A DNA stretch of 64,000 nucleotides from a bacterium (lineage in GTDB: Bacteria; JAMCPX01): the NCBI GenBank assembly GCA_021787665.1, contig JAJYLN010000004.1, positions 68,415-132,414 of the forward strand, written 5' to 3'. Made by a program: the position numbers and the translations under genes. Below are positions 621 through 20,492 of the stretch, piece by piece; within the stretch, counting starts at the first letter, position 1, and each line of letters opens with the position of its first letter. The notes beneath the pieces were generated by a model. It worked only from the letters and a program-made list of their open reading frames with translations, was not told where the DNA came from and did no database searches.

Positions 621-3600
621 CTACGGGAACGTCGTTCCCTTCGCTTCCACCTTCACCTCAACATTCTCCTCTTCATAGAAGGGCTCGATCCCGAGCTTCA
701 CATCACCGTAGTCTTCATGGCCCGTTCCTCCAGGTATAAGCCTCCCCAAGATGATGTTCTCCTTCAGGCCTTTCAGGTTATCGACCTTCCCCATGATGGC
801 TGCCTCCGTGAGTACCTTCGTCGTGTCCTGGAACGATGCGGCAGAAATAAAACTGTCCGTACTGAGCGAAGCCTTAGTTATCCCGAGGAGCATCTGCTCC
901 GCGACCGCTGGTTTCTGGCCCTTGTTGATTATCTTCTGGTTAACGTCTTCGAAGTAATACTTCTCTACGTGCTCGCCCGGCAGGAACATCGTATCTCCCG
1001 GCTCATTGATCTTGATCCTCCGCACCATCTGTCGGACTATCACCTCAATGTGCTTATCGTTTATCTTTACTCCCTGATATCGGTAGACCTCCTGTATCTC
1101 GTTCACGAGGAATTTGGCCAGCTCTTTCACACCGAGTACCCTGAGGATATCATGGGGATTTATCAGACCGTCCGTCAGGGGTTCGCCCGCCTTGACATGA
1201 TCCCCCTCCTGCACGTTGATGTGTCTGCCCTTGCTGATGTTGTATGTCTTCGATTCACCGATGGACGGACTGACGACGATCGTGGTTTTGCCCTTCACGT
1301 CATTGCTGAAATGCACCGTGCCGTCGATCTCCGAGATGATGGCGGACTCTTTCGGCTTACGTGCTTCGAAGAGGTCGACGACCCTGGGAAGACCGCCGGT
1401 AATATCTTTCGTCTTCGTTGTCTCGCGGGGTATCTTGGCAAGCATGTCGCCCGCCTTGACTTTCTCGCCGTCCTTTACGACGAGCTCCGCCTTGATGGGC
1501 AACGAAATGAACACCGGTGTGTTCGTGCCCGGCACCTTGACAGTAACGCCGTTCTCGTTCACGATGGATATGTGCGGCCGCTTGTCCGGGTCTTTCGATT
1601 CTATGATCATCTTCGTAGACCGACCGGTCTGCTCGTTCCATGTCTCCTCGACGGTGACACCCTCTTCGATATCTCCGTACCGTACGATGCCCCCGGCCTC
1701 GGTCAGGATCGGGCTCGCGTAGGGATCCCATGAAGCAAGGACGGTGTCTGCCTTTACCTTTGCGCCGTCCTCCACCTGCAGGGTCGCCCCGTAGACAATC
1801 TTGTACCGCTCCTTCTCTCTCCCGCTCTCTTCGGCGATTATGAACTCACCGTGTCGGTTCATGACGATTGTCTTGCCTTCCTCGCTCTTCACCGTCTTCA
1901 GCCCTATGAACTTGACGATGCCCTCGTACTTCGCCTCGAGCGAGTTCTGCTCGACCTTACGGCTCGCGGTACCACCAACGTGGAATGTCCGCATTGTCAA
2001 CTGGGTACCCGGCTCGCCAATCGACTGGGCCGCTATTACACCGACGGCCTCTCCGATATCGACCAGCTTACCCCGGGCAAGATCCTGGCCATAGCACCTG
2101 GCACAGACCCTGCCGCCCCTCGATCTGCATGTCAACACAGACCGGATAACGACACTCTCCACGCCCGCATCCTCTATCTTTTTGACCAGATCGTCGTTGA
2201 TCAGTTCGTTCGCCTTTACCAGGACCTCGCCGGAGAACGGGTCCACGACGTCCGTCAGGACCACCCTGCCCACGATTCTCTCGCCGAGGGTCTGTACGAC
2301 CTCTCCGTCGACGACCAGGGGCGTTACAACGATACCGTCCAGAGTGCCGCAGTCGTCGTCCTCTATGATGGCGTCCTGAGCCACGTCGACGAGCCTCCTC
2401 GTGAGGTACCCTGAGTTCGATGTCTTGAGCGCCGTATCGGCAAGGCCCTTCCGTGCGCCGTGCGTCGATATGAAGTACTCGAGGACGTTCAGGCCCTCCC
2501 TGAAATTCGATAGAATGGGGGTCTCCATGATATCGCCCGAGGGCTTCGTCATCAGTCCCCTCATGCCGGCAAGCTGCTTTATCTGCTCATCGCTGCCCCG
2601 TGCTCCGGAGTCTGCCATGATATAGATGGGGTTGAAGCTGGGCACCTTCCTGTTGACCCCGCCCCTGTTGACGATGACCTCTCCGGCGATCTCTTTCTTC
2701 ATCTCGAAGGCAACGTTCTCGCTCGCCTTTGCCCAAATGTCGATGATCTGGTTGTGCTTCTCCCCGGGCGACAGGAGCCTGTCGTTTGCCCTCTCGGTAA
2801 CCTGCCGAACCTCCTCGAGTGCCCGCTTTACGATGTCGGACTTCTTGGGCGGTATCTTCATGTCGTTGATCGATATGGAGATACCCGCCTCGGTCGCCAT
2901 TTTGAATCCGATGTCCTTTATCCTGTCCGCGAGCAATACGGTCTCTTTTTCGCCGGCGATCTTGTAGCAGAGATCGATAAGGTTGGCGATTTCTTTTTTA
3001 CCCATGACCTTATTGATGTTGTCGAAAGAGATGCTCGGGGGAAGCACCTCTGAGAGCATCGCGCGCCCTACGGTCGTTTCGTACATCTTGCCGTTGAGCC
3101 TCAATCGTATCTTTGCGTGGAGGTCGACCGCCCTGAGCTCGTACGCGGTCCTTACCTCCTCGTGGCTCGAGAAATATTTGCCTTCTCCTTTCACATACGC
3201 GCTCGGCTTGGTCATGTAGTAGAGGCCCAGAACGATGTCCTGCGTAGGATTGATGATGGGCTTTCCGTTCGCCGGGGAGAGGATATTGTTCGTGGACATC
3301 ATGAGTATCCTTGCCTCTGTTTGCGCCTCCACGGACAGCGGCACATGCACGGCCATCTGGTCACCGTCGAAATCTGCGTTAAACGCCGGACAGACGAGCG
3401 GGTGCAGGTGTATCGCCTTGCCTTCCACAAGCATGGGCTCGAACGCCTGTATCCCGAGCCTGTGGAGCGTCGGCGCCCTGTTCAGAAACACCGGGTGCTC
3501 AGTGATGACTTCCTCGAGGACGTCCCAGACCTCGGGCTTTTCCTTTTCCACCATCTTTTTCGCTGTCTTGATGGTCGTTGCGTAGCCATACTCTTCGAGC

Positions 3601-4754
3601 TTGTTATAAACGAAGGGTTTGAAGAGCTCTAGAGCGATCTGCTTGGGAAGGCCGCACTGGTGCAGCTTCAGTTCCGGCCCTACCACGATGACGGACCGCG
3701 CCGAATAGTCCACCCTCTTGCCGAGGAGGTTCTGTCTGAACCTGCCGTGCTTGCCCCGTATGGTCTCGCTGAGCGACTTCAGTTCCCTCCTGTTCGCCGA
3801 CGTGACCGTCTTGCCCCGCTTGCCGTTATCGATAAGGGCGTCGACAGCCTCCTGCAGCATCCTCTTCTCGTTCCGGATGATGATGTCCGGCGCATCTATC
3901 TCGAGGAGCTTCTTCAGCCTGTTGTTCCTATTGATGATCCTCCTGTAAAGATCGTTGAGGTCCGCCGATGCAAAGCGCCCTCCCTCCAGATGGACGAGCG
4001 GACGCAGCTCCGGAGGCAGAACCGGCAGGACCTCGAGGACCATCCATTCAGGCCTGTTGCCTGAATGTCTGAAGGCCTCGACGATCTTCAGCCTTTTCCC
4101 GAGCTTTTTCCTCTTCTGGTCGGAGGTCGTGCCCTTTATCTCGCGGCTGAGCTCCTTGGAAAGCTTCTCGAGGTTGACCCTGCTCAAGAGCTCACGGATT
4201 GCCTCGGCTCCCATTTTTGCGGTAAAGCCGGTCGGCCCGTACTGTTTCACGAGCTCGAGGTACTTCTCCTCCTTCAGCAACTCTTTCTCTTTCAGCGGCG
4301 TGCCCTTGGGGTCTATCACGATGTACGACTCGAAGTATACGACCCTCTCCAGCTCCCGCGCCGTAAGGTTGAGCATGTTTCCGATCGGACTCGGTATGTT
4401 CTTCAAAAACCAGATGTGCGCCACCGGGCAGACGAGCTCTATGTGTCCCATGCGTTCTCTCCTGACCTTGGACTGAATGACCTCTACGCCGCACTTCTCG
4501 CACACGACGCCGCGGTGCTTCATTCTCTTATATTTACCACATAGGCACTCGTAGTCCTTTATCGGACCGAAGATCTTTGCACAGAACAACCCATCCCTCT
4601 CCGGCTTGAAAGTTCGGTAGTTTATGGTCTCCGGCTTTTTCACCTCGCCGTGCGACCAGCTCCTTATCTTCTCCGGAGAAGCAATGCCGATCTTGACCGC
4701 TGCTACTTCGTTCGGATTCTTGGGCTTTTCGTGCTGAAAAAAACCTTCTTCCAT
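621..4754 (-). CDS. rpoC: DNA-directed RNA polymerase subunit beta-prime
   Basis: 1377-aa ORF with the zinc-binding CxxC...CxxC N-terminus and conserved NADFDGD catalytic motif (here [14 protein letters not shown]); follows rpoB. Confidence 0.98.
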
Positions 4755-4770
4755 GGTAACCTCCTGTGAA

Positions 4771-7700
4771 TCACTCCATCTGATCTTTTTCTATCAGGTC
4801 CACGTCCAGGGCCATACTCTTCAGTTCCCTCTTGAGCACATTGAAGGCTTCCGGTATTCCTGGCTCAAAATTGTGTTTCCCCTTCGTTATCGAGTCGAAG
4901 ATCCTCGTCCTACCCTGTATGTCGTCGGACTTAACCGTGATCATCTCTTGCAGCGAGTAGGCTGCCCCGTAAGCCTCGAACGCCCATACTTCCATCTCTC
5001 CGAGCCTCTGCCCTCCGAACTGGGCCTTTCCTCCGAGGGGCTGCTGGGTTACGAGAGAGTACGGGCCGACGGATCGTGCGTGTATCTTTTCCTCTACCAG
5101 GTGATGCAGTTTCATCATGTACATGACGCCGACCGTCACCTTTGCCCTAAACGGCTCGCCCGTCTTCCCGTCGTAGAGCACTATCTGCCCGTCCTCCGGC
5201 AAGTTTGAGATCTTCAGGAGTTCCTTTATCTCGTTCTCCGTGGCGCCGTTAAAGACCTCGGTCGTTACCCTGATGCCGTTCACCAGCCTCCCCGCATACT
5301 CGAGGAGCTCGCTGTCGCTGAGGTCATCCACGACCTTGACGATCCCTGTGTTGCTGTAAATGTCCTTAAGATAATCCCGCAGTTTTCCCGCGCTGTAGTT
5401 GTCATCGAGATACTCCTGGATCTGCTCACCCAGCTCCTTTGCGGCCCACCCGAGGTGCGTCTCGAGTATTTGGCCGACATTCAGCCTCGAAGGAACACCG
5501 AGCGGGTTCAGGATGATATCTATCGGTCTCCCGTCGGGCAGGAACGGCATGTCCTCGGCGGGCACGATTCTCGAAACAACTCCCTTGTTTCCGTGTCTGC
5601 CTGCCATCTTGTCGCCAGCGTACAGCTTCCGCTTCGTTGCAATAAAGACCTTCACCAGCTTGAAGACCCCTACGGGCAGCTCGTCGCCGCGCTTCAGCCT
5701 GTTTATCTTTTGATCGAAGATTGACTTGATCACATCCTTCTGCTCGATTGTCGAGTCGACGACCCGTCTTACCTTCTCCTGCAACTTGCTGCCTGCCATA
5801 AAATTGACCGACATCCATTTCTCCATCGGCAGCTTCGTGATGTGCTCGATGGTTATGGCGTCCCCGCGCTTGAGGGATATCTTCCTTCTCTCGTCCGAGA
5901 ACTTCTCTCCGACCTTCTCTCCTACGAGTAGCTTGCGCAGGTGCTCCTTCATCGTTTCCTCGATGATACCCAGCTCTTCTTCCTGATCGGCATGCAGCCG
6001 CACGAGTTCTTGGTCTTTCGTCCTGTCCTTGTCCGCCGAGGAGTTCTTCCTCGAAAAGATCCTGACGTCCACAACGGTGCCGTGGACACCCGGCTTTACC
6101 CGCAGGGACGTGTCCTTGACGTCCCCTGCCTTGTCCCCGAAGATCGCCTTGAGCAGCCTCTCCTCAGGTGTCGGCTGAGACTCACCCTTCGGTGTTACCT
6201 TCCCCACGAGTATATCACCCGCCTTGACCTCAGCGCCGATCCTGACAACGCCGTTCTCGTCCAGGTCCTTCAGGCTCTCCTCGCTGACATTGGGTATGTC
6301 CCTGGTTATCTCTTCTCTGCCGACCTTCAGTTCCCTGGCGGAGCACTCATACTCCTCGATGTGGATGGACGTAAAAATGTCTTCCTTGTTGATTCTCTCG
6401 CTCACGATGATCGAGTCCTCGTAGTTGTAACCGTTCCACGGCATAAAGGCCACGACGACATTCTTCCCGAGTGCCAGCTCTCCGTTAGCAACAGCCGCTC
6501 CGTCCGCAATCACATCTCCCTTTTTCACATGCTGTCCCGCCTTGACGATGGGCACCTGGTTCAGACACGTCCCCTGGTTCGACTTCTGGAACTTATGGAG
6601 ATTGTATATCTTAACGGTCGGTCCCTTGCTTCTGTTCATGTACTGGATAACGATCTTCTTGGCATCGACCGACGTCACGACACCGTCGTCCTCGGTCACG
6701 ACAACGACGCCCGAGTTCTTCGCAATGTAACCTTCGATCCCCGTGGCAACCAGCGGGGACTCCGTCTTTATGAGCGGCACCGCCTGTCTCTGCATGTTCG
6801 ATCCCATCAGTGCTCTGTTGGCGTCGTCGTGCTCGAGGAACGGTATCAGTGCTGCGGCAGCCGATACGAGCTGCACCGGAGAGACGTCCATGAGATCGAC
6901 TTCGTCACGGTGGACCATGAGGAACTCACCGTTCCTCCGCGCAGCGACATACTCCTCGATGATCTTTTTGTTGTGGTCGAGCGCCGTATTGGCCTGCGCT
7001 ATCGTTTTGTTCTCTTCATCGATCGCCGATACATACACGATCTCGTCGGTCGCGATGTTGTTTTTAACGACCCGGTAGGGCGTCCTGAGAAACCCGAACT
7101 CGTCCACCTTTGCGTAGGTGCTCATCGAAGCGATAAGACCGATGTTGGGTCCTTCCGGCGTCTCTATCGGACAGATTCTTCCGTAGTGGGTGGTATGGAC
7201 GTCCCTCACCTCGAAGCCTGCCCTCTCTCTGGTCAGTCCTCCCGGGCCGAGGGCAGATAGCCTCCTCTTGTGCGTGATCTCGGCAAGCGGGTTGGTCTGG
7301 TCCATGAACTGCGAAAGCTGGCTGCCTCCGAAAAACTCCTTGATCGCCGCGGTCACGGGCTTCGGGTTTATCAGCTCGGACGGCATGAGTGTCTGGAGAT
7401 CGTGGGTGAACTTTTCTTTTATCGTCTTCGCCATCCTCAAAAGACCAAGTTTGAATTGGTTTTCCAGGAGTTCCCCGACCGTCCTTACGCGCCGGTTGCT
7501 CAGGTGATCGATATCATCGACCTCTCCTTTGCCGTTCTTGAGGTCGAAGAGATATTTGACCGTATCAACGATGTCTTCCCTGTCCAGTATCGTAACGTCG
7601 AGGGGTATGTTCTTCCCGAGTCGGCTGTTTAGTTTCAGTCTGCCGACCCTCGTCAGGTTGTACTTCGCCTTTGAGAAGAACATGTCCTCATAGAAAGAGC

Positions 7701-8868
7701 GGGCTATCTCCGGGGTATAGGACTCGTTCGGCTTCAGCTTGGAATAGAACTCCTCAATCGCTTCCTGCTTTGCGGTCATCCTGTCAAGCAGCAGGGTGTC
7801 GCGCATGCCACCGCTTATGGATATGTTGTCGTAGAATATGAACTCCAGCTTCTCCACTCCGTTGGCGAGGAGCTTATCGAATATCTCCTTCGTGATGCCC
7901 TCGTTGCACTTCATGACGACATTGCCGTCCTTGTCCATCACGTTCCCGACCGATACTCTGCCATCGATGTCGTTATAGCGTACCGGGATAGATTTGATCT
8001 TGCGCGACGCTATTCTCCTCACCAGATTCCTGGTGATCTTCGTGCCCGCGGGCACCACAATCTCATCGGAGGCAGGATCTTTTATATCGAGGCTGAACTT
8101 CCTGTTCAAGAGGAGCTCGTAGTCCAGTTCCATCGTCAGCTGATTGCCCTTGACTTTGACAAACTCCGTCTTGTAGAACCTTCGCAGTATCTCCTCCTCC
8201 GTATAGCCGAGGGCCTTCAGGAGTACGGTCGCATAGAATTTCTTTTTCTTGTCCACTTTTACATACATGATATCTTTCTGATCGAACTCAAAATCGAGCC
8301 ATGACCCTTCGTAGGGTATAATCCTCGCCATGTAGACGGGCCTGCCCGTACTCTGAATCTTGAGCTTGTCGTACTCGAAGAACACGCCGGGTGAACGGTG
8401 CAACTGGCTGACGATGACCCTCTCGATCCCGTTTATTATGAAGGTTCCGTTCGATGTCATTATCGGTATCTCACCAAAAAACACCTCCTGCTCCTTTATA
8501 TCCCGTATGGTCTTCGTTTTTGTCTCCGGATCGACGTCCTTTAAGATAAGCCTTACCATGAGCTTCATGGGCATCGTGTACGTCAGGCTCTTTTCCTTAC
8601 ACTCATCGACGCTGTATGCAGGAGGATCCAGCAGGTACTTTACGAACTCGAGCGAAGCTGTCTCGTTGTAGTCCTTTATCGGGAAGACAACGTTGAAGGC
8701 ACCCTGAAGGCCAACATTGCCTCGTTCTTCGGGTTTGAGATCAGCCTGCAGAAACTGGTTAAAGGAATTCAACTGCACCTCGATAAGATCCGGGATGTCC
8801 ATCAGTGCATGGAACTTCCTGAAATCTTTTCTCGGCGCAAAAGACTCGTTTGATTCTTTGACAGTCAT
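4771..8868 (-). CDS. rpoB: DNA-directed RNA polymerase subunit beta
   Basis: 1365-aa ORF with typical RpoB sequence blocks; canonical position between rplL and rpoC. Confidence 0.98.
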
Positions 8869-8887
8869 ATCGTTATTTACCTCCCAC

Positions 8888-8932
8888 AGGAATAAAACAA
8901 TACCTCAACGTCTGTTACCGGGCCCGGTAGAT
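8888..8932 (-). promoter_or_regulatory. Perfect 14-nt palindrome (TACCGGGCCCGGTA) followed by a U-rich tract in the rplL-rpoB intergenic region; possible attenuator or partial terminator
   Basis: Palindrome at about 8916-8929; on the minus-strand transcript it is followed by ...UUGUUUUAUUCC. An rplL-rpoB attenuator is known in other bacteria. Confidence 0.3.
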
Positions 8933-9070
8933 ATCGTTACCTTGCCGATTCAGAAACAGCGGACAGGCCACTCCCTTGTCCTCCTATCGGTAACAGAAGG
9001 AGCACCGAGTGCCTGTCGCAGATATATCCTTCACGCCGTTCAGAACAACAACTTCTGTGCTTTCTGGTAT

Positions 9071-9499
9071 TTATTTAACTTCTACCTTTGCTCCGACCGC
9101 TTCAAGCTGTTGCTTTATTTTCGCTGCATCTTCCTTGGATACGCCTTCCTTGACCACCTTGGGAGCGGTTTCAACAAGCTCTTTTGCCTCTTTCAGGCCG
9201 AGACTCGTTATCACCCTGATCTCCTTGATGACCTTGATCTTTTCAGCGCCGGCGTCCGTCAGGCTGACAGTGAACTCTGTCTTCTCTTCTGCCGGCTGCT
9301 GCGGAGCAGCGCTGCTCTGGGCACCTGCAGCGACTGCAGCACCCATGACCGGCATCGCGGCTGCCTTAATGCCGAACTTGTCTTCGAGCGCTTTTACCAG
9401 TTCTGCAAGCTCCATAACATTCATCCTTGATATGGCAGACAGGATTTCGTCTTTGGTCAGCGTTACCTCTTTTTCAGCGAGGCCTTCCTTTGTAGTCAT
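9071..9499 (-). CDS. rplL: 50S ribosomal protein L7/L12
   Basis: 142-aa ORF with the Ala/Glu-rich hinge and conserved C-terminal domain ([14 protein letters not shown]...[10 protein letters not shown]). Confidence 0.96.
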
Positions 9500-9510
9500 T
9501 ACCTACCTCC

Positions 9511-10032
9511 TCATTTTTTTTGTTCGTTCTGTAGTATTCCATGCAAAACCGTTATCAACCCCGCTATCGGTGAAGCGGCAGCGTTGACAAGTCTGGACAT
9601 CGGCGCATTCAGCGTGCTCAACAGCATACCGACCAGGGCGTTCCTATCAGGCAGGGTAGAGAACAGAACCACCTTATCAGCGGCCATAAAAGAATGATTC
9701 ATGATACCTGCCTTGATGACCAGCAGTGGATTGTTCTTCGAAAACCCGACGATCTGTTTTGCGATCGCAGAGGGATCACCGTAGGCGAACATAACGGCGG
9801 TCGAGCCCGTGAATGTCTCCTCCGTAATCCCAGGTATCGTGTCCCTGATCGACAGGAGAAATAGCGTATTCTTGACTATTTTGAGGTCTCCGTCGCTCTT
9901 CCGCAGCTCTCTCCTGAGATTGGTGAGCTCTCCCACCTTCAGGCCCTTATACCCCGTGATAAAAATGGCCTTCGACTTCGCTATCTTTCCCTGTAACGTA
10001 GAAACGAGCTCCGCTTTGGATTGTTTATTCAT
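9511..10032 (-). CDS. rplJ: 50S ribosomal protein L10
   Basis: 173-aa ORF immediately upstream of rplL; sequence and position consistent with L10. Confidence 0.93.
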   Translation of the reverse strand: MNKQSKAELVSTLQGKIAKSKAIFITGYKGLKVGELTNLRRELRKSDGDLKIVKNTLFLLSIRDTIPGITEETFTGSTAVMFAYGDPSAIAKQIVGFSKNNPLLVIKAGIMNHSFMAADKVVLFSTLPDRNALVGMLLSTLNAPMSRLVNAAASPIAGLITVLHGILQNEQKK

Positions 10033-10060
10033 TGAGAACCTTCCTCACCGTATAGTGAAT

Positions 10061-10747
10061 TTATCGATACCGAGAAATTTCGAGCTTGATGCTCGGCCCC
10101 ATCGTCGTCGACAGGTAAGCACTCTTCAGGAACTGTCCCTTGGTCGTAGCGGGCTTCAGGGATTTGAACTTCTCCATCACCGCATCGAAGTTTCCAGCCA
10201 GCTTGTCCTCAGAGAAGGACTTCTTCCCTATCACCGTGTGTACCACTCCTCCCTTGTCGTTCTTTATCTCTATCTTGCCTGCCTTCGCATCTTTTACCGC
10301 CCTGGCAATCTCGAACGTCACGGTGCCGAGCTTGGGGTTCGGCATCAATTTCTTGGGTCCGAGGATCTTGCCGAGCTTGCTCACGATTCCCATGAGGTCC
10401 GGCGTCGCGATGACCGTGTCAAAATCGAGCCACCCGGCTATGACCTTGTTCACGAGCTCTTCGGAGCCGGCGTAGTCAGCGCCTGCATCCAGTGCCTCTT
10501 TTTCGTTCTTCGTGAAAACGGCTACCTTTACCTGCTTCCCGAGGCCATACGGCAGAACGACAGTCCCCCGTATGTTCTGATCGGTCTGTTTCGTATTGAT
10601 ACTGAGATTGACGGCCAGGTCCACGGTCTCATCGAACTTTGGTCCCTGAAGATCCTTCAGGAGCTTTATGCCGTCCTTAAATTCATACACGTTGTTCCGA
10701 TCAATCCGCTTCATCTCTTCGTTAAATTTTTTCCCGTGTCTTTTCAT
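10061..10747 (-). CDS. rplA: 50S ribosomal protein L1
   Basis: 228-aa ORF with L1-like sequence; canonical position between rplK and rplJ. Confidence 0.95.
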   Translation of the reverse strand: MKRHGKKFNEEMKRIDRNNVYEFKDGIKLLKDLQGPKFDETVDLAVNLSINTKQTDQNIRGTVVLPYGLGKQVKVAVFTKNEKEALDAGADYAGSEELVNKVIAGWLDFDTVIATPDLMGIVSKLGKILGPKKLMPNPKLGTVTFEIARAVKDAKAGKIEIKNDKGGVVHTVIGKKSFSEDKLAGNFDAVMEKFKSLKPATTKGQFLKSAYLSTTMGPSIKLEISRYR

Positions 10748-10758
10748 GATAGGCTACC

Positions 10759-11184
10759 TCAGCCGATTTCTACTCCCATACTCTTTGCCGTACCTTCTAT
10801 TATCTTCACCGCGCTATCGACATCATAAGCTCCCAGATCTGCCATCTTTTGGTTCGCAATGTCAACAAGCTGCGTCCTCGTGATCTTTCCCACCTTGTTC
10901 TTCTTGGGATCACCGGATCCCTTCTCGATCTTCAGGGCCATCTTTATCAATACAGACGCGGGTGGGGTCTTCGTAATAAACGAAAAAGTTCTGTCCGAAT
11001 AAATAGTCACTAACGCAGGTATAATCAAGCCTTCCTGCATCTTCGACGTTCTCGCGTTGAATGCCTTGCAGAACTCCATGATATTTACCCCATGCTGGCC
11101 GAGCGCCGGGCCCACCGGCGGGGCCGGGTTGGCCTTGCCGGCCGGTATCTGTAATTTGACTTTCGCTATCGCCGTTTTCGCCAT
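10759..11184 (-). CDS. rplK: 50S ribosomal protein L11
   Basis: 141-aa [47 protein letters not shown] is a typical L11 N-terminus. Confidence 0.96.
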
Positions 11185-11195
11185 CTCGTACTCCT

Positions 11196-11729
11196 TTAAT
11201 TTTTCTCAACCTGATTGAAGTTGACCTCAACCGGCGTCGATCTGCCGAATATGCTGACCAGCACCCGCAGCCTTCCCTTGTCGGCCTTTACCTCCTCGAC
11301 TATCCCGTTGAAGCTCGCAAACGGGCCGTCTATCACCCGTACGCTCTCGCCCGTTTCGAATGACAGCTTGGGTTTGGGCTTTACCGTCCTTTCCTGAATC
11401 TCAGAGATAAGCCGGTTCACTTCCTCGTCCGGCACGGAGGGGATTGACCTGATGTCCTTTCCCCCACCGACGAAGCCGGTGACCATAGGAGTGGACTTGA
11501 CAATATAAAAGGTTTCCTCGGTCGGTTCCAGTTGTATAAGGATATAGCCGGGAAAGAACTTCTGCTTTGACTTTTTCTTGACGCCATTGACGATCTCGAT
11601 CACGTCGGCCTGCGGTACCAATATGGTGCCGAAGAGAGGTTCCTTCCCTATCCCCTTGATCTTCTTGATCAGGGCGTCCTTCACCTTTTCCTCATAGCCG
11701 GAATATGTATGAACAACGTACCACTTCAT
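11196..11729 (-). CDS. nusG: Transcription termination/antitermination factor NusG
   Basis: NusG-like sequence begins at [16 protein letters not shown] (NGN domain) and ends with a KOW-like C-terminus; the track ORF 11196..11852 carries a spurious N-terminal extension. The ATG at 11727-11729 overlaps the secE stop (ATGA). Confidence 0.93.
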
Positions 11730-11929
11730 TTGAATATCAGGCTCATGATATAGCTGAAGCCGAGATCTGCGATATTGAGGTACACGGCCGTCAAGATCAC
11801 CACCACGATGATAACGACGGTCGACGTCGAGATCTGCTTCCTCGTAGGCCACGCCACCTTTTTCAGCTCGGTAATCACCTCGCTGTAGAAGAGCTTCACG
11901 CGTTCTGTAAAAGTTATCTCATTTTCCAT
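11726..11929 (-). CDS. secE: Preprotein translocase subunit SecE
   Basis: 67-aa ORF with a single C-terminal transmembrane helix, sitting between tRNA-Trp and nusG as in the conserved secE-nusG arrangement. Confidence 0.85.
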   Translation of the reverse strand: MENEITFTERVKLFYSEVITELKKVAWPTRKQISTSTVVIIVVVILTAVYLNIADLGFSYIMSLIFK

Positions 11930-11949
11930 AACTGTCTCTCTTATTAGTC

Positions 11950-12022
11950 CAGGTCAGGAGGGACTCGAACCCCCAACAGCCGGTTTTGGAGACCGGTACT
12001 CTACCAGTTGAGCTACTGACCT
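11950..12022 (-). tRNA. tRNA-Trp (anticodon CCA)
   Basis: Minus-strand sequence AGGTCAGTAGCTCAACTGGTAGAGTACCGGTCTCCAAAACCGGCTGTTGGGGGTTCGAGTCCCTCCTGACCT folds as a cloverleaf with anticodon loop CU-CCA-AA; canonical position upstream of secE. Confidence 0.85.
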
Positions 12023-12170
12023 ATTTGGTCTCCTTGTGTTCGGTATGCTTTCTGCAATGCGGACAGTACTTCCTGAGTCCCACCCTGTCGGGAGTATTCT
12101 TCTTGTTTTTCTCGCTCGTATAGTTCCTGTTCTTGCATACCGTGCATGCCAGAATAATCATTGTCCTCAT
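12021..12170 (-). CDS. rpmG: 50S ribosomal protein L33
   Basis: 49-aa ORF below the track length cutoff: [49 protein letters not shown], with two CxxC pairs typical of zinc-ribbon L33; lies between tuf and tRNA-Trp. Confidence 0.85.
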
Positions 12171-12195
12171 GTGTACCCCCGGGTAATCCCCCGTT

Positions 12196-13386
12196 TTACT
12201 CTACGATCTCCGTGACGACGCCTGCGCCCACCGTCTTTCCGCCTTCCCGGATCGCAAACCGCAGCCCCTTCTCCATCGCTATCGGCACGATCAGATCCCC
12301 TTCCAGCGTGATGTTGTCTCCCGGCATCACCATCTCCACGCCCTGCGGCAGCTTCACCACCCCAGTCACATCCGTCGTCCTGAAGTAGAACTGCGGCCGG
12401 TACCCCGTGAAAAACGGCGTGTGCCTCCCCCCTTCTTCCTTCGTCAATACATACAGCTCTCCCTTGAACTTCGTGTGCGGTGTGATGCTCCCTGGCTTCG
12501 CCACTACCTGCCCTCGTTCTACCTCTTCCTTCTTCGTCCCCCTCAATAATACCCCGATGTTGTCTCCAGCTCGCCCCTCGTCCAGTACCTTCCGGAACAT
12601 CTCTACCCCGGTCACCACCGTCTTCCCTGTCGGCTTTATCCCCACTATCTCTATCTCTTCCCCTACCGTTACCTTCCCTCGCTCCACTCTCCCTGTCACC
12701 ACCGTCCCTCGCCCGCTGATGCTGAATACATCCTCCACGGGCATCAAAAACGGCTTCTCGATCTCCCGCTGCGGCTCTGGTATGTAGCTGTCGATCGCCT
12801 CCATCAGCTTCATGATCGACCCTTCCCCCATCTCTCCCTTGTCTCCTTCCAATGCCTTGAGCGCACTCCCGATCACGACGGGCACCTTATCCCCAGGAAA
12901 CTTGTACTGCGTCAGAAGCTCTCTTACCTCGAGCTCCACAAGGTCCAACAGCTCCTTGTCGTCCACCATGTCAGCCTTGTTGATGTATACCACAATGTAC
13001 GGAACGCCTACCTGCCGCGCCAACAATATGTGCTCCCTCGTCTGAGGCATCGGTCCGTCCGCTGCACTTACCACAAGAATCGCCCCGTCCATCTGCGCCG
13101 CCCCGGTTATCATGTTCTTGATGTAGTCCGCATGCCCCGGACAGTCTACATGCGCATAGTGCCGCTTCGCTGTCTCGTACTCTACATGCGATATCGATAT
13201 CGTTATCCCGCGCTCCCGCTCCTCCGGCGCCTTGTCTATCTGATCAAATGGAATGAAATTCGCCAGCTTCTTCTCCGACAACACCTTCGTTATCGCTGCT
13301 GTCAACGTCGTCTTCCCGTGGTCGATATGCCCTATCGTCCCCACATTCAGGTGCGGCTTCTTCCGCTCAAATTTCGCCTTGCCCAT
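12196..13386 (-). CDS. tuf: Elongation factor Tu
   Basis: 396-aa [36 protein letters not shown] with GHVDHGKT P-loop, DCPGHADY and NKADMV GTPase motifs. Confidence 0.98.
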
Positions 13387-13430: not shown

Positions 13431-13503
<73 letters not shown>

Positions 13504-13506
13504 ATA

Positions 13507-13579
<73 letters not shown>

Positions 13580-13628
13580 TTAATCCTTTAAAAGTCAATC
13601 AAAACTATAAAACTCAATCCAGGAGCAA

Positions 13629-13713
13629 TGGAGAGGGAAGGATTCGAACCTTCGTAGGCGCTATGGCCGGCAGTTTTACAGACTGCTCCCTTTAGCCACT
13701 CGGGCACCTCTCC
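13629..13713 (-). tRNA. tRNA-Tyr (anticodon GUA)
   Basis: Minus-strand GGAGAGGTGCCCGAGTGGCTAAAGGGAGCAGTCTGTAAAACTGC... with long variable arm and perfect 7-bp acceptor stem; anticodon loop CU-GUA-AA. Confidence 0.85.
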
Positions 13714-13753
13714 CCGTTTTGCTCGTTTACCACCACGCAACGATACCTTACAC

Positions 13754-13826
13754 AGCTAGCGAGGGGACTCGAACCCTTAACCTGCTGATTACAAATCAGC
13801 TGCTCTACCAATTGAGCTACGCTAGC
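13754..13826 (-). tRNA. tRNA-Thr (anticodon UGU)
   Basis: Minus-strand GCTAGCGTAGCTCAATTGGTAGAGCAGCTGATTTGTAATCAGCAGGTTAAGGGTTCGAGTCCCCTCGCTAGCT; anticodon loop UU-UGU-AA. First gene of the Thr-Tyr-Gly-Thr-tuf cluster. Confidence 0.85.
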
Positions 13827-13842
13827 AAGTGATAAATTTTTG

Positions 13843-13870
13843 CTTATAACATATCAAAAAGTAGTGTCAA
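13843..13870 (-). promoter_or_regulatory. Sigma70-like promoter for the tRNA-tuf cluster (TTGACA, 16-nt spacer, TATAAG)
   Basis: On the minus strand TTGACA (rc of 13865-13870) and TATAAG (rc of 13843-13848) are separated by 16 nt, about 17 nt upstream of the first tRNA. Confidence 0.45.
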
Positions 13871-13889
13871 ACGTTTTTTTCACCGAAGC

Positions 13890-15616
13890 TTATCGCCTCC
13901 TGTCGACCGCATTCACGGCCCTGCCCGCGTACCCCTCGTTTTCTCTGGGAATTATACGTTCCCCTCCGTGTACCAGTATCGTGCAGCCGGTGCAGAGTTC
14001 CGGCGTTACCGTGTACGGCTGCTGCCGCATATCCTTGAATTCGGGCAGCAGTACGCACGGAGACCTGGTTATGACGACGGCAGGCCCGTGGAACGCCACA
14101 GCTTCACGTACGCACCTTTCTACCTCTCTGGTTACTGACGGGTCCACTGTCCTGACCCAGTCCACGCCAAGCGCCTTCACGATCCGCTCGAGTGATATGT
14201 CCGAACACGGGTTGCCGTGCAGATCCGTACCAGAAAGGGGGTTGTGCTGCGCGCCGGTCAGCGCCGTCGTATGGTTATCGAGGATCACGACGAGAATGTT
14301 GCTCCTGTTGTAGACCGCGTTGAGGAGCCCGGTCATGCCCGAATGCAGGAACGTAGAGTCTCCGATAACGGCAATCGTTTTCTTCCCGTTCTTCGGCACG
14401 ACGGTTTCTATGCCCACTGCCTGTCCTATGCCGGCCCCCCGAGTGAGACAGGTATGGACGGCCTTCAGAGGTTGATCGTAGGGTAGGGTATAGCACCCGA
14501 TGTCCCCGGCTATAAACGAGCGCAGTTTGCTTAACTGGTAAAAGACACTCCTGTGGGGACACCCGGGCAGAGAACGAGGGAATGCTGCAGCACGTCCGGC
14601 ATCCCGGTGGCCTGACCGGCTACCGGGCCTTCGGAAGCGTGTGGCCCTGCTGTAAACCTGCGTACGCTGTCCCTCATCACATCGGGTGTAAGCTCGGAAA
14701 CCGAAGGGACAAATTCCTTACCGCGTATCCCCGGGGAAAGGTGCTTGATCTGCATCTCCAGAAACGGATCGAGCTCTTCCACGACGAGCACCTTCCTGAA
14801 GTCCCTGGCGAATCCCTGTATACGTCCTGCAGGCAGGGGATTGGTCAGGGCTATCTTTAGAACGTTCGCGTGCGGCGCGACCTCCTTCACGTACTGGTAC
14901 GAGATGCCTGCTGTAATGATGCCATAGTCCGCAGTTCCCCTCTCCGTCCTGTTGAGAGGTAACTGTTCCGAGAACCATCCGAGTTCCTGAAGCTTTCCCT
15001 CGAGTGTCCGTCTCGCCCTGCGTGCGTTGGACGGCACCATGACTTTCCTGCCCGGGTCCTTCCCCGGAGCCGTGGGCTGTCCGGATCGTACGGGACCCTG
15101 CGGAAAAATGATTGATGTGGAATGCGAGACCCTTGTCGTCATACGCAGCAGCACCGGTAGATCGAAGCGCTCGCTTATCTCGAAGGTCCGTACCGTGAAC
15201 AGCCTCGCCTCTTCGCTGTCCGAAGGCTCGAGGATGGGGATCTTTGCTATGAGAGTGTACCAGCGGTTGTCCTGTTCGTTCTGAGAGCTGTGTATACCAT
15301 GATCATCAGCGGACACGACGACAAGACCGGCACCCACGCCCGTATACGCGAGCGTCATGAGCGGGTCAGACGCCACATTGAGTCCGACATGCTTCATCGT
15401 GACAATCGACCGTGCGCCGGCAAGGCAGGCACCTGACGCCGTCTCCAGTGCCACTTTCTCATTGACGGCCCAGTTTGCGAAGATGCCCTCGTAGCCTGCT
15501 ATACTCTCGAGGATCTCGGTAGACGGGGTGCCGGGATATCCGGTGGTAAATCTGCAACCTGCCTCAAAGCTGCCCCGTGCAATAGCCTCGTTGCCCGACA
15601 TCAGCACGCGTTCCAT
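13890..15616 (-). pseudogene. Indolepyruvate/2-oxoacid:ferredoxin oxidoreductase alpha-subunit-like gene (IorA-like), reading frame broken once
   Basis: Track ORF 14531..15616 (MERVLMSGNEAIARG...) is an IorA/PFOR-type N-terminal domain; the downstream frame (through ORF 13890..14417) continues without stops as PGCPHRSVFYQLSKLRSFIAGDIGCYTL..., the conserved TPP-binding region. The two halves differ by -1 at CCCGGGT (about 14561-14567). The C-terminus lacks complete 4Fe-4S Cys motifs and no iorB partner follows. Confidence 0.45.
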
Positions 15617-15655
15617 GAACCACCCCCAAGGGGCCGGCAGGAAAGTCCCGCCCTC

Positions 15656-16669
15656 TTATATCGTCCTTCCTATGGCCTTCGCGACCCTGCCGATGTCCCG
15701 GACCATGCGTTTGAACTCGTCCGGCCTGAGCGACTGCTCTCCGTCGCTCAGTGCCTTCTCGGGCTGCTGGTGTACTTCGACGATGATACCGTCGGCGCCG
15801 GCCGCTACCGCAGCCAGAGACATCGTCGCCACGATGTCCCTTCTACCGGTCCCGTGGCTCGGATCGACGATTACCGGGAGGTGGGTGAGCTTTTTGAGTA
15901 CCGGGATAGCGTTGAGATCAAGCGTATTGCGGGTCTCGGTCTCGAAGGTCCGTATGCCCCTCTCGCACAGGATGATCCTGTCGTTCCCCTTGCTCGCGAT
16001 ATATTCCGCAGACATGAGCAGTTCCTTTATCGTCGCAGAAAGTCCTCTCTTCAACAGGATAGGCCTGTTGGTGGAACCGAGTTCCTTCAGCAGTGCAAAG
16101 TTCTGCATGTTCCTCGCCCCGACCTGGAAAATATCCGTGTAGTCTGTCATAAGGCCGATGTCCCTGGTGTCCATGATCTCGGTCACTACGGGCATCCGCA
16201 GAGCACGCTTCGCAGCCCTCAATATCTCGAGCCCCTCCTTGCCCATCCCCTGAAACGAGTACGGGGAGGTCCGCGGCTTATAGGCGCCACCCCTCAGAAC
16301 AGACGCACCCGACGACTTCACGTCCCTCCCTATCTGCATGAGCATCTCCCTGCCCTCTATGGAGCACGGTCCTGCCATGACGACTATCCTCCTGCCTCCT
16401 ATGGTAACACCGCCGACCCGAATGAGTGTATCTTCTTTCCTGAACTCCCTGCTCACGACCTTGTAGGGGCTCAGTATCGGGAGCACCTTCTCGACTCCCG
16501 CAAACGTCGTGAGTGGCACATTGGCAAGATTCCTCTCGTCTCCTATGGCCCCGATTATCATGCGCTCCTTGCCTTTCGAGATATGGGGCCTCAGCTTCCT
16601 GTCCTTTATCGTCTTCAGAACATTCTCGATGTCCTTCTTTGATGCGTCGGGCTTCATCACAATTATCAT
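15656..16669 (-). CDS. 3-deoxy-7-phosphoheptulonate (DAHP) synthase with N-terminal regulatory domain
   Basis: 337-aa ORF; KDO8P/DAHP-synthase-like TIM-barrel core (VVMAGPCSIE, HLPVIVDPSHGTGRR) preceded by a roughly 70-aa N-terminal extension as in Thermotoga/Bacillus-type enzymes. Confidence 0.8.
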   Translation of the reverse strand: MIIVMKPDASKKDIENVLKTIKDRKLRPHISKGKERMIIGAIGDERNLANVPLTTFAGVEKVLPILSPYKVVSREFRKEDTLIRVGGVTIGGRRIVVMAGPCSIEGREMLMQIGRDVKSSGASVLRGGAYKPRTSPYSFQGMGKEGLEILRAAKRALRMPVVTEIMDTRDIGLMTDYTDIFQVGARNMQNFALLKELGSTNRPILLKRGLSATIKELLMSAEYIASKGNDRIILCERGIRTFETETRNTLDLNAIPVLKKLTHLPVIVDPSHGTGRRDIVATMSLAAVAAGADGIIVEVHQQPEKALSDGEQSLRPDEFKRMVRDIGRVAKAIGRTI

Positions 16670-17412: not shown

Positions 17413-18122
17413 TTAACATTTTTCAGAAAGAACTCGGCCAGTAGTTCCTCGTCCTTCCTGGCCTTGGACTCTTCTTCCTTCCCGGCTACGGCATCCTCTT
17501 TCACCGGCAGCCCGATAAACCCGCTCTCAACTCTATAGACGTTCTCCTGTACGACGACCGAGTCCGGAAAGACCTCTGCACCTGCGGTCTTCAGCTCTTC
17601 CAAGGTCTTTATCTTGCCAACGAGCTTCTCGGTATCCGTACCGCTGTCCAGCGCGGTAAACTTAGCGGCCTGCTCGAGCTTGAACTTCGGTCTTGCCTTC
17701 GTCAGTATCGTGATGGTCTCTCCCTCGAGCAGAAGCTTTCCGCTCGCGTTGAGTTCGTCAAGGAGCTCCTGCGTGAAGAACACCTTTTCGGATATGCCCT
17801 TTGCTCCCTGGACCATGGCATTGCTCAACTTTGCTCCCACGAGGACAGCGCCCCTCATGTCCGCGTGGGTCAGGTCGGCGTTGCGTAGGTCCGCGTTGCG
17901 CATATTCGTATTGATGAGCACCGCATGCCTGAGCGACGCACCTGAGAGGTCAGCGCCGGACAGGTCGGTGTCCGTGAGGTCGGCGTACCTGAAGTTCGCG
18001 TTCCTGAACATCCCGCCGGACAGGTCCATCTTCTTCAGGTCGATGCCCTTGAGGTTCGCGCCTTCAAAGGAAGCCCCTTCTTTGACGCCTTTCTCAACGT
18101 CTTCCCTGCTGAGCAGCTTCAT
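17409..18122 (-). CDS. Pentapeptide-repeat protein
   Basis: Repeats of A(D/N)LSGADL-type pentapeptides (ANLKGIDL, ADLTDTDLSGADLSGASL, NADLRNADLTHADM). Likely start is the internal Met (MKLLSRED), whose ATG overlaps the upstream PilZ stop (ATGA); the track ORF to 18242 carries an Arg-rich spurious extension. Confidence 0.75.
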   Translation of the reverse strand: MKLLSREDVEKGVKEGASFEGANLKGIDLKKMDLSGGMFRNANFRYADLTDTDLSGADLSGASLRHAVLINTNMRNADLRNADLTHADMRGAVLVGAKLSNAMVQGAKGISEKVFFTQELLDELNASGKLLLEGETITILTKARPKFKLEQAAKFTALDSGTDTEKLVGKIKTLEELKTAGAEVFPDSVVVQENVYRVESGFIGLPVKEDAVAGKEEESKARKDEELLAEFFLKNVK

Positions 18123-18502
18123 GGAATATCTTTTATGAAGCCCTTTATCCTCTGTTTTGTCTCTTCTTTCATTCCGACGAATTCTATGCCGATGCCGCAA
18201 TCCGTGCCGTCCTTCTGCGCCTCGCTCTCTGTGGTCACCCACTTGACCACCCCCCGCGCCTCCAGAAGGTTTATGTCGTTCGGTATCGTAAACTTTATGA
18301 GCAGCGATTTTCCCACCGGCAGGGTCTTGCCGGTCTTGAGGAAAATACCACCCTCACTGAAGTTGGTCGAGTAATCGTAGAGATAAGCCTCGCTGTCCGG
18401 ATAATCCAGAAGCATTTTAACAGCCTCATCGTCGCTCGATACAACGACTACCCTAACCTTGACCCGGGGGGTCTTCCTTTGATTGGCGGTGACGTCCGTC
18501 AC
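18119..18502 (-). CDS. PilZ-domain protein (putative c-di-GMP receptor)
   Basis: 127-aa ORF with RxxxR (RKTPRVKVR) and DxSxxG (DYSTNFSEGG) PilZ signature motifs. Confidence 0.7.
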   Translation of the reverse strand: MTDVTANQRKTPRVKVRVVVVSSDDEAVKMLLDYPDSEAYLYDYSTNFSEGGIFLKTGKTLPVGKSLLIKFTIPNDINLLEARGVVKWVTTESEAQKDGTDCGIGIEFVGMKEETKQRIKGFIKDIP

Positions 18503-18514
18503 GATTGCTTCCAG

Positions 18515-18868
18515 CTACGAGGCCTGGGTGAGGGAAAGCTTGTCGATGAAGCTATGCAGCTTCTTCTGATCTTCTTCGCTCAACGTCTGGAATTCGACAC
18601 CCATGCCCGGAATAAGGTTGGTACCTTTTATCTGCTGTGGGTCATTTACCCACGATACCCGGCCCTTGACCTGAATGGGTACCCTTATGTCGGGGATAAC
18701 GAACTCGACCGAGATTACCGTATTTACCTTCAGAGGGTCCTTGGTGGATATGAACATGCCGCCCCTGCTGATGTTCATGGCGTAGTCAGAGATAAAGCTC
18801 GTGATGTCCCCGTATTTAACTTCGAGTTTGGTATCAATGCGCCTTGCATGGCGCTTATCATCAGACAT
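18515..18868 (-). CDS. PilZ-domain protein (putative c-di-GMP receptor), second tandem copy
   Basis: 117-aa ORF with RxxxR (RHARRIDTK) and DxSxxG (DYAMNISRGG) motifs; strong RBS (AAAAGGAGG) upstream. Confidence 0.7.
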   Translation of the reverse strand: MSDDKRHARRIDTKLEVKYGDITSFISDYAMNISRGGMFISTKDPLKVNTVISVEFVIPDIRVPIQVKGRVSWVNDPQQIKGTNLIPGMGVEFQTLSEEDQKKLHSFIDKLSLTQAS

Positions 18869-18926: not shown

Positions 18927-20492
18927 TTAAAAGGAGAAACACCCCGTGGCGCCGGGGGGACACGACGCCACGGTTATGGTATGGACGGAGAGACGGCCCT
19001 TTGCATAGCCGAGGACGTCCGTGGCGGGATCGAAGCTCACGGAGCCGTCGGTCGTGGTGACGGTAAAGCCGCCCGGGAAATGGAGAGGGGGGATGAATAT
19101 CTCCGTCTGTCCGGTGCCTATACCGTCCTCCTTATACGTATAGGTGAAGGCGGTCGTCGTGAACGTGGAGGGATCGATCGTAACGGGGTAGCTTATGCTG
19201 ACCGGCGTACCGGCTGTGAGCATGGGATACGGCCTTGAGAGGACGTCGATGCCGTCAAAGACAGGGCCCCCGGTCTGGTCAACCAGCGGCCTGGGGGTAC
19301 CGTCCGGGTAGTACGGGCTCATGTTATCGTCGTTGACGGTGTTGTAGTCCCAGTCGAACCAGCCCGCATCGAACAGGTCGAAGTCGTTGAGCAGCGTGAC
19401 CATGTAGGCCGCACTGCCCGGGCTGCTGTAGCCCGTGCCGGTCTCGTCGACAACGCACGGCACTCTCATGGCAGTGCCGTCGTCCCTGATCTGGGTAAAG
19501 CTCGGCACAATAATGGTGGTGTCCGTCCCATAGGATGGGTTAATGCTCAGGGGATAGAAATGCGGGACGAACACGAGGTTAGGGAACTCTTCCGGAAAGG
19601 TCGTACCGCTGATGGCGGTCTTATAGCTGTTCAGCAGGTTCGTCAGCACCACGGACGGCTCGAACGCAATGATATGGTACGGGTCCACGGCCCTTATCGC
19701 CCTAATCATCTTCTCATAGAACGGCACCAGCCCCTTCGTCTCGAAGTCCGGAGACGTCAGGGGATAGTCCTTGCCCGGGAACGGCTCGTTCATAATCTCG
19801 TACCCGAGCACATTCGATGTAGAGCTGAACCTCTGCGCTACCGCTTGGAATACCGCTGCGTAGTGCTCCTGCAGCCCGGTCCCGTCCGGCGCAGCGCGAT
19901 CGTCCCACAGGTCCTGGAACGACTGCAAAACCTGGGGGAGGCCGTAGTTTGCTGCCCAGGTGGTACTGCATTCGGTGGGTGAATAGCCGCCGAGCACACA
20001 GGCCCACGCGGGCGCACCGTCGCCGTCGCAGAACGACTCGCTGTAGAGGTCCTGGTGCATGTCGATCAGCACCCACAGCCCGTTGTCCTTGCACGCCTGT
20101 ACCTCCTGCTGGACCCGATCGAGATAGCCCGTGTCTATGACGCCCGGGGTTGGCTCGAGCGCGGCCCAGACAACGATCAGCCTGACGGCGTTCAGTCCGA
20201 GCCCCCTGAGCCTCGCGAAGTTCTGTTCAAGGTTCTGGTCCAGGGTCTCGCCGGTTATCACGGTGTCTGTAAAGGGGAGATACGGGGGATGTTTCGCCGG
20301 GTCGTTCACATTCATCCCGTGTACAATGATCACCCTGCCCTGCGTGTCCCTGATCCACGTCCCGTCGGACCAGGCTACAGCGTGTACCACGCCCGGCCTG
20401 CCTGCCTTCTTTGCCGAGCATCCTGCACAGCAAGCCACCACTCCGAGCGCTGCGAAGAACATACCTGCGAGGGACAACACTCCATCCTTCAT
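18927..20492 (-). CDS. Glycoside hydrolase family 5-like lipoprotein (cellulase/endoglycoceramidase-like), copy 1
   Basis: 521-aa ORF with lipoprotein-type signal peptide (LGVVACCAGCS), GH5-like blocks (VIIVHGMNV..., NAVRLIVVWAALEP, catalytic MNEP) and paralogy to ORF 44760..46367. Confidence 0.65.
   Translation of the reverse strand: MKDGVLSLAGMFFAALGVVACCAGCSAKKAGRPGVVHAVAWSDGTWIRDTQGRVIIVHGMNVNDPAKHPPYLPFTDTVITGETLDQNLEQNFARLRGLGLNAVRLIVVWAALEPTPGVIDTGYLDRVQQEVQACKDNGLWVLIDMHQDLYSESFCDGDGAPAWACVLGGYSPTECSTTWAANYGLPQVLQSFQDLWDDRAAPDGTGLQEHYAAVFQAVAQRFSSTSNVLGYEIMNEPFPGKDYPLTSPDFETKGLVPFYEKMIRAIRAVDPYHIIAFEPSVVLTNLLNSYKTAISGTTFPEEFPNLVFVPHFYPLSINPSYGTDTTIIVPSFTQIRDDGTAMRVPCVVDETGTGYSSPGSAAYMVTLLNDFDLFDAGWFDWDYNTVNDDNMSPYYPDGTPRPLVDQTGGPVFDGIDVLSRPYPMLTAGTPVSISYPVTIDPSTFTTTAFTYTYKEDGIGTGQTEIFIPPLHFPGGFTVTTTDGSVSFDPATDVLGYAKGRLSVHTITVASCPPGATGCFSF

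Follow-up and report, generated by a model that had tools for sequence, protein, structure and literature searches.

A frame-broken iorA-like gene at a C CCG GGT heptamer is most likely a pseudogene remnant of an iorAB operon

On the minus strand of the 64,000-nucleotide stretch of bacterial DNA analyzed here (the window), an iorA-like gene loses its reading frame at a CCCGGGT heptamer, and a formal −1 slip at this heptamer regains a conserved cysteine motif. The locus therefore raises the question of whether the break is bridged by the ribosome in a functional gene, whether the nucleotide sequence is in error, or whether the gene has decayed. We consider it very probable that the locus is a non-functional pseudogene remnant of an iorAB operon, which related bacteria have kept intact.

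The frame break in the iorA-like gene

The iorA-like open reading frame (ORF1) runs on the minus strand from 15616 to 14531 and encodes 361 residues, with the break located at tgC CCG GGT gt. Its C-terminal end reads ...LVLCPGVPTGVSFTS*, and the terminus is alternatively cited as ...CPGVPTGVSFTS. The CCCGGGT heptamer occupies 14567..14561 on the minus strand, and the minus-strand read at the junction is ctc gtt ctc tgc ccg ggt gtc ccc aca gga gtg tct ttt acc agt taa. Across the heptamer the −1 frame gives ...GCPHRSVFYQLSKLRSFIAGDIGCYTL..., restoring LCPGCPHR...GDIGCYTL, and remains open until the stop codon at 13892..13890. Re-reading the T of GGT yields a product of 575 residues with both PF01855 and PF02775.

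A tblastn search with the intact IorA of L003, the closest syntenic ortholog, returned two HSPs, each in its own frame, with an overlap at the CPGC motif. The first aligned L003 residues 1-354 to window 15616..14555 with 74.6% identity, and the second aligned residues 351-552 to window 14567..13962 with 75.7% identity. Frame 0 contains the first cysteine codon (TGC) and frame −1 the second (TGT), which places the missing base within C-CCG-GG-T. Both the re-read sequence and the tblastn result agree with an initial reading made from the letters alone (the sequence-only reading), according to which the minus-strand frame is lost at tgC CCG GGT g and a −1 slip regains CPGCPH/GDIGCYTL.

The 5′ part of the putative iorA pseudogene (14563..15616, minus strand, frame 0) extends through the POR_N-like domains as far as the first Cys-Pro-Gly of CPGCPH, as delimited by PF01855 and tblastn, while ORF1 as called continues out of frame past CPGCPH to the stop at 14531 on the same strand. 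The probable 1-nt deletion site (14561..14567, minus strand) was placed by alignment to L003 and holds C CCG GGT as the remnant of TGC CCG GGN TGY. The 3′ part (13977..14562, minus strand, −1 frame) is the TPP-binding domain by PF02775 and tblastn, and it contains the motifs GCPHR, GDIGCYTL, GDSTFLHSG, and DNHTTALTG up to CTGCTI, where homology to IorA stops. The motif regained at the junction had been described as TPP-binding; on the basis of PFOR-family structures, we instead take CPGC...GDIGC to supply the cysteine ligands of the proximal [4Fe-4S] cluster. The TPP/Mg motif is presumably the GDSTFLHSG...DN stretch, which lies farther downstream.

Against TIGR03336 (IOR_alpha), the 575-residue frame-repaired product scored 585.8 bits over model positions 2-560 of 595. 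This is under the curated equivalog cut-off of 650.9 bits, and model positions 561-595 are missing from the product.

The iorAB operon in related bacteria

A protein search identified thousands of IorA homologs, of which the closest intact one (P0001, 604 residues) is 75% identical; the sole 100% match was the 361-residue ORF1 itself. The loci of three relatives (L003, L004, and L005) were used for comparison. The frame-repaired product is 62-75% identical to the IorA proteins of the syntenic relatives, and the gene is an iorA by descent, with 75% amino acid and 77% nucleotide identity to L003 iorA and identical flanking genes. Another intact homolog (P0017, 64% identical) was considered as a paralog from the same genome and rejected, as it sits in the syntenic locus of a more distant organism and is an ortholog.

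In all three relatives the genes are ordered PilZ, pentapeptide protein, metallophosphoesterase, DAHP synthase (DAHPS), iorA (599-604 residues), and iorB (196-202 residues). DAHP synthase, whose reaction opens the aromatic amino-acid pathway, is the upstream neighbor of iorA in all close relatives, and in the window it is intact (15656..16669, minus strand, 337 residues), 91% identical to the L003 protein and of equal length. In L003 and L004, iorB is followed by tRNA-Thr, Tyr, Gly, and Thr genes and tuf. The same four tRNAs are present in the window as tRNA-Thr(TGT), Tyr(GTA), Gly(TCC), and Thr(GGT) (13431..13826, minus strand), followed by tuf at 13386..12196, and because they lie 3′ of iorB in the ortholog, they fix the right-hand edge of the deletion described below. 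Among the homologous loci with enough flanking sequence, 60 of 67 have iorB directly downstream of iorA. The frame break was found in none of the relatives, all 72 intact homologs being encoded in a single frame, with the nearest relative retrieved 75% identical at the amino acid level.

Several further features of the region were observed. DAHP synthase followed by iorAB is a consistent arrangement in the clade (window 13431..16669, minus strand; L003 6793..10860; L005 6596..10410), and in L005 a phenylacetate-CoA-ligase-like AMP-binding gene lies 3′ of iorB in place of the tRNA-tuf cluster. Tandem PilZ-domain genes encoding 127 and 117 residues are present at 18119..18868 (minus strand), where L003 has one such gene and the more distant L005 has two. 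In L004/L007 (3101..9289), tuf is directly followed by the S10 operon (rpsJ, rplC, and further genes); the window tuf (12196..13386) is 89.5% identical in nucleotides to the L004 gene and is followed by rpmG-secE-nusG-rplK, the match stopping exactly at the tuf stop codon. Either the tuf copies of the two organisms have different neighbors, or the tuf repeat has produced a chimeric join in one MAG contig. The cluster at 621..13386 (minus strand) comprises tuf, a tRNA (11950..12022), rpmG, secE, nusG, rplK, rplA, rplJ/L, rpoB, and rpoC, and appears intact and colinear; Rfam at the gathering threshold identified only tRNAs in this tuf-rpoC cluster and no ribosomal-protein leader. The window also harbors two GH5 cellulase-family paralogs, each with a Glyco_hydro_5_C domain, at 18927..20492 (minus strand, 521 residues) and 44760..46367 (plus strand, 535 residues), which are ~68% identical in nucleotides and lie on opposite strands 24 kb apart.

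Two lesions relative to the intact locus

When the window was aligned to L003 DNA, iorA was 77% identical from its start to window position 13977. The coding-region alignment contains exactly one 1-nt gap, which falls at window 14562; here TGC CCG GGC TGC CCT CAC in L003 stands opposite TGC CCG GG- TGT CCC CAC in the window. Homology to L003 then ends just past CTGCACGATA (Cys-Thr-Gly-Cys-Thr-Ile) and restarts at AAAAAAACGTTTGACA before the first tRNA, L003 9642..10409 (768 bp) being replaced by window 13976..13881 (96 bp). In L003, these 768 bp encode the last ~58 iorA codons with the Fe-S cysteine motifs and all of iorB. The 96-nt filler (13881..13976, minus strand) directly precedes the tRNA-tuf cluster and includes the fortuitous stop codon at 13892..13890. 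Searches of the filler with blastn-short and tblastn (E <= 10-50) identified no remnants of iorB or of the ferredoxin domain, only chance 7-9-mers, and the placement of the filler across multiple gaps by MAFFT is not meaningful.

Neither an iorB partner of the PF01558 family nor a second iorA was found by tblastn in the 64-kb window. The C-terminal 2x[4Fe-4S] ferredoxin-type cysteine motifs are gone from the window product, with CTGC alone left; a canonical CxxCxxCxxxC within the last 95 residues is present in 65 of the 72 intact homologs and does not occur in the window product. The tblastn search and the motif comparison thus confirm the missing iorB partner and the degenerate C-terminal ferredoxin motifs pointed out in the sequence-only reading.

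The locus resembles a functional IorA (TIGR03336, composed of PF01855, PF02775, and a 4Fe-4S dicluster domain and encoded in an iorAB operon) in its domain order and in the upstream DAHP synthase. It differs in that the frame is broken inside CPGC, the dicluster ferredoxin domain and iorB are deleted, the score is under the family cut-off, and five near-invariant residues are replaced. None of the attributes by which a functional IorA would be recognized, namely a score above the cut-off, a continuous frame, a ferredoxin domain, and an iorB partner, was found.

The position of the break, where the PorA-like portion of IorA meets the PorB-like portion, could also suggest a gene fission, by which an alpha-like chain of 361 residues and a beta-like chain would form a complex like the four-subunit 2-oxoacid:ferredoxin oxidoreductases, whose PorA and PorB are distinct polypeptides. 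The Pfam domains do split cleanly, with PF01855 on ORF1 and PF02775 on ORF2. However, ATG, GTG, and TTG are all missing from the −1 frame over the 53 codons before and the 48 codons after the second cysteine codon, and a chain starting at the first possible start (GTG at 14417) would be devoid of CPGCPH, GDIGCYTL, and the GAGIG stretch; the PF02775 match itself starts only at profile position 38. The ferredoxin domain and a gamma-like IorB would still be missing, and the evolutionary rate is elevated. PorA/PorB-like split subunits were therefore rejected, as there is no start codon near the motif in the −1 frame, and we attach almost no credence to a fission.

The heptamer as a slippery site

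The sequence-only reading had entertained C CCG GGU as a functional slippery site. Programmed −1 ribosomal frameshifting at this heptamer would produce a full-length IorA-like protein as a means of regulated expression. The heptamer does match X_XXY_YYZ formally in the zero frame, a tandem −1 slip yields exactly the conserved CPGCPH, and the downstream frame is open for ~225 codons with recognizable TPP-domain motifs. However, C CCG GGN is found in frame at the same position in 9 of the 72 intact homologs, including the closest relative, because TGC-CCG-GGN encodes Cys-Pro-Gly, and its presence therefore needs no selection for slippage. Whenever a base drops out of TGC CCG GGN TGY, the heptamer that remains inevitably allows a formal −1 slip to restore the motif. 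The window contains 14 copies of CCCGGGT against 12.3 +/- 3.6 expected, which is at the level of chance, and C_CCG_GGN also occurs in frame in rpoB, four times in a GH5 gene, and at two more positions in ORF1.

Two of the checks suggested in the sequence-only reading, a comparison of orthologs and a search for a downstream RNA structure, went against slippage. The orthologs that carry the heptamer carry it within an intact frame, and no relative shares the frame break. Downstream folds of 51 and 91 nt were no better than shuffles (z = −0.27 and −0.92, respectively; pseudoknots not explicitly included), and no SD-like stimulator was identified within 30 nt upstream of the heptamer.

Well-known −1 frameshifting sites of bacteria are A_AAA_AAG in dnaX and A_AAA_AAG/A_AAA_AAA in IS3 and IS911, which are accompanied by SD-like and stem-loop or pseudoknot stimulators. 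The only feature that the window has in common with such sites is the formal X_XXY_YYZ in the zero frame; unlike them, it has no stimulators, its break is unconserved, and its heptamer belongs to those that shift poorly in E. coli (PMC4066793). In that study, Sharma et al. (2014) measured all heptamers in E. coli, an organism other than the one considered here, and termed C_CC.G_GG.C and C_CC.G_GG.U poor frameshifters, with GGN codons in the A-site being weak for frameshifting (PMC4066793). In addition, a protein made across both frames would come without the ferredoxin domain and without IorB, and near-invariant residues are substituted in it. A functional trans-frame product is not plausible, and the comparative data already largely refute programmed frameshifting; we judge it extremely unlikely.

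A weaker form of the same idea is that low-level spontaneous −1 slippage rescues the indel, giving a 575-residue IorA-like TPP protein without a ferredoxin domain that retains some activity. If true, this would explain why there is a single small indel and why the catalytic motifs are kept, and another 2-oxoacid oxidoreductase in the genome might, for example, lend it a gamma or ferredoxin subunit. We assign this possibility only a minimal probability. Transcriptional slippage requires long A/T runs, for which C3G3 is unsuitable, and was rejected on general knowledge.

Sequencing error or real mutation

Under an artefact of sequencing or assembly, the true sequence would be TGC CCG GGN TGT, a base would have been dropped in the C3G3 run, and there would be no frameshift in vivo. 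The break does fall within a short homopolymer stretch (CCCGGG), the kind of sequence most prone to indel errors. To our knowledge, three-base runs are not error-prone on short-read platforms. Across both lesions the window, the ENA MEGAHIT contig k141_116177 (ERZ27233565), and Logan SRR13170411 agree at 100% of positions; these are three different assemblies with differing contig ends and identity over 2.2-12 kb, but all three carriers of the sequence could stem from one shared read set.

The quality of the surrounding assembly and the second lesion argue further against an artefact. Both rpoB (1365 residues) and rpoC (1377 residues) are single full-length ORFs with all domains, and the syntenic neighbors of iorA have exactly the lengths seen in L003, which indicates that the assembly is not indel-ridden; ~8 kb of rpoB/rpoC and all syntenic neighbors are free of frame breaks. 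No intact allele of the species was found among 5.8 billion proteins, the next best match being 75% identical, and the junction, searched both as it stands and with the base put back, had 0 matches in JGI metagenome contigs. Neither the loss of ~770 bp including iorB nor the excess of changes at conserved sites can result from a 1-nt error, and with the base restored, the locus would still be truncated and partnerless.

The homopolymer sequencing error raised as an alternative in the sequence-only reading is thus weakened by the three identical assemblies and by the independent damage, while the possible origin of the assemblies in one read set continues to speak for it. Sequencing error is unlikely as the cause of the frame break, and we consider it quite improbable that an artefact accounts for the locus. 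With or without a single-base error, the 3′ deletion and the substitution pattern predict that the locus is non-functional.

Substitution pattern and decay

Amino acid changes were polarized with five outgroups. The window lineage carries 48 private amino acid substitutions compared to 11 in L003 (relative-rate test, p ~1e-6). Changes in the window at positions that are >=97% conserved among 69 other homologs include P106H, R345H, P347L, M393R, and M453L, and R449H falls within the DNRTTAMTG motif. In a leave-one-out count of violations at >=97% conserved positions, the window had 6, compared to a mean of 0.67 and a maximum of 4 for the other sequences. Three-taxon dN branch lengths came to ~0.099 (window) and ~0.038 (L003). 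Because of saturation of dS to the outgroups, synonymous rates are unpolarized and a branch-specific omega assumes equal dS on both sister branches.

Three neighboring genes served as controls and have changed almost equally in both lineages, with window to L003 changes of 12:7 for DAHPS, 8:3 for the metallophosphoesterase, and 10:8 for the pentapeptide protein (pooled 30:18); the contrast of iorA with the pooled neighbors is of marginal significance (Fisher p = 0.048). Over the whole gene, dN/dS relative to L003 is 0.13, which implies purifying selection over most of the divergence and a recent relaxation. The catalytic motifs CPGCPH (after repair), GDIGCYTL, GDSTFLHSG, and DN survive, and one small indel in ~1650 nt is somewhat below the expectation for long neutral decay.

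A local cluster of changes was observed just upstream of the motif (14568..14588, minus strand), where RPP(I) has become HSL(V) through R345H, P346S, and P347L at consecutive near-invariant residues. This requires at least 4 point changes within 12 nt, an unusually dense arrangement beside the deletion site.

Among the explanations offered in the sequence-only reading, the early-stage pseudogene is the one favored by these data, with iorB and the C-terminal Fe-S motifs lost, an excess of substitutions in the window lineage, and the relatives intact. The locus is like other bacterial unitary pseudogenes formed by frameshift and deletion in its 1-base indel, in the loss of its 3′ end and operon partner, in a non-synonymous rate raised on the affected lineage alone, and in the intact orthologs of its relatives. 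There is no notable difference from these cases, the decay in the window being recent.

Proposed history of the locus and its implications

The ancestral order was most likely DAHP synthase, iorA (~600 residues), iorB (~196 residues), four tRNAs, and tuf. In this lineage a deletion or replacement removed the last ~58 iorA codons, which hold two ferredoxin-type [4Fe-4S] motifs, together with all of iorB, leaving 96 unrelated bases, and one base was lost in the glycine codon of the Cys-Pro-Gly-Cys cluster-binding motif. CCCGGGT is then what is left of TGC-CCG-GGN-TGY after the base loss, and its slippery appearance arises by construction. After inactivation or relaxed selection, excess amino acid changes probably accumulated in the remaining coding sequence, some of them at near-invariant positions. 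No recoding would take place, and the product of a rare spontaneous −1 slip would be without the electron-transfer domain and the partner subunit. The single-base gap, the deletion, the lack of iorB in the window, the rate asymmetry, and the intact genes of relatives are direct observations, and from them we infer both the order of the two lesions and the absence of residual function at the locus.

The locus is an ordinary and fairly recent pseudogene. It carries a caution for frameshift scans, as Cys-Pro-Gly (TGC CCG GGN) and similar motifs give X_XXY_YYZ heptamers by coding necessity. A 1-nt deletion in such a motif always mimics restoration by a −1 slip, and the observation that a slip restores the motif is therefore no evidence of recoding.

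For the organism, the pairing of DAHPS with iorAB hints at a functional tie of IOR to aromatic amino-acid metabolism that has been given up here. The loss by this lineage of an iorAB module that its relatives keep beside DAHP synthase adds a small datum on aromatic 2-oxoacid metabolism.
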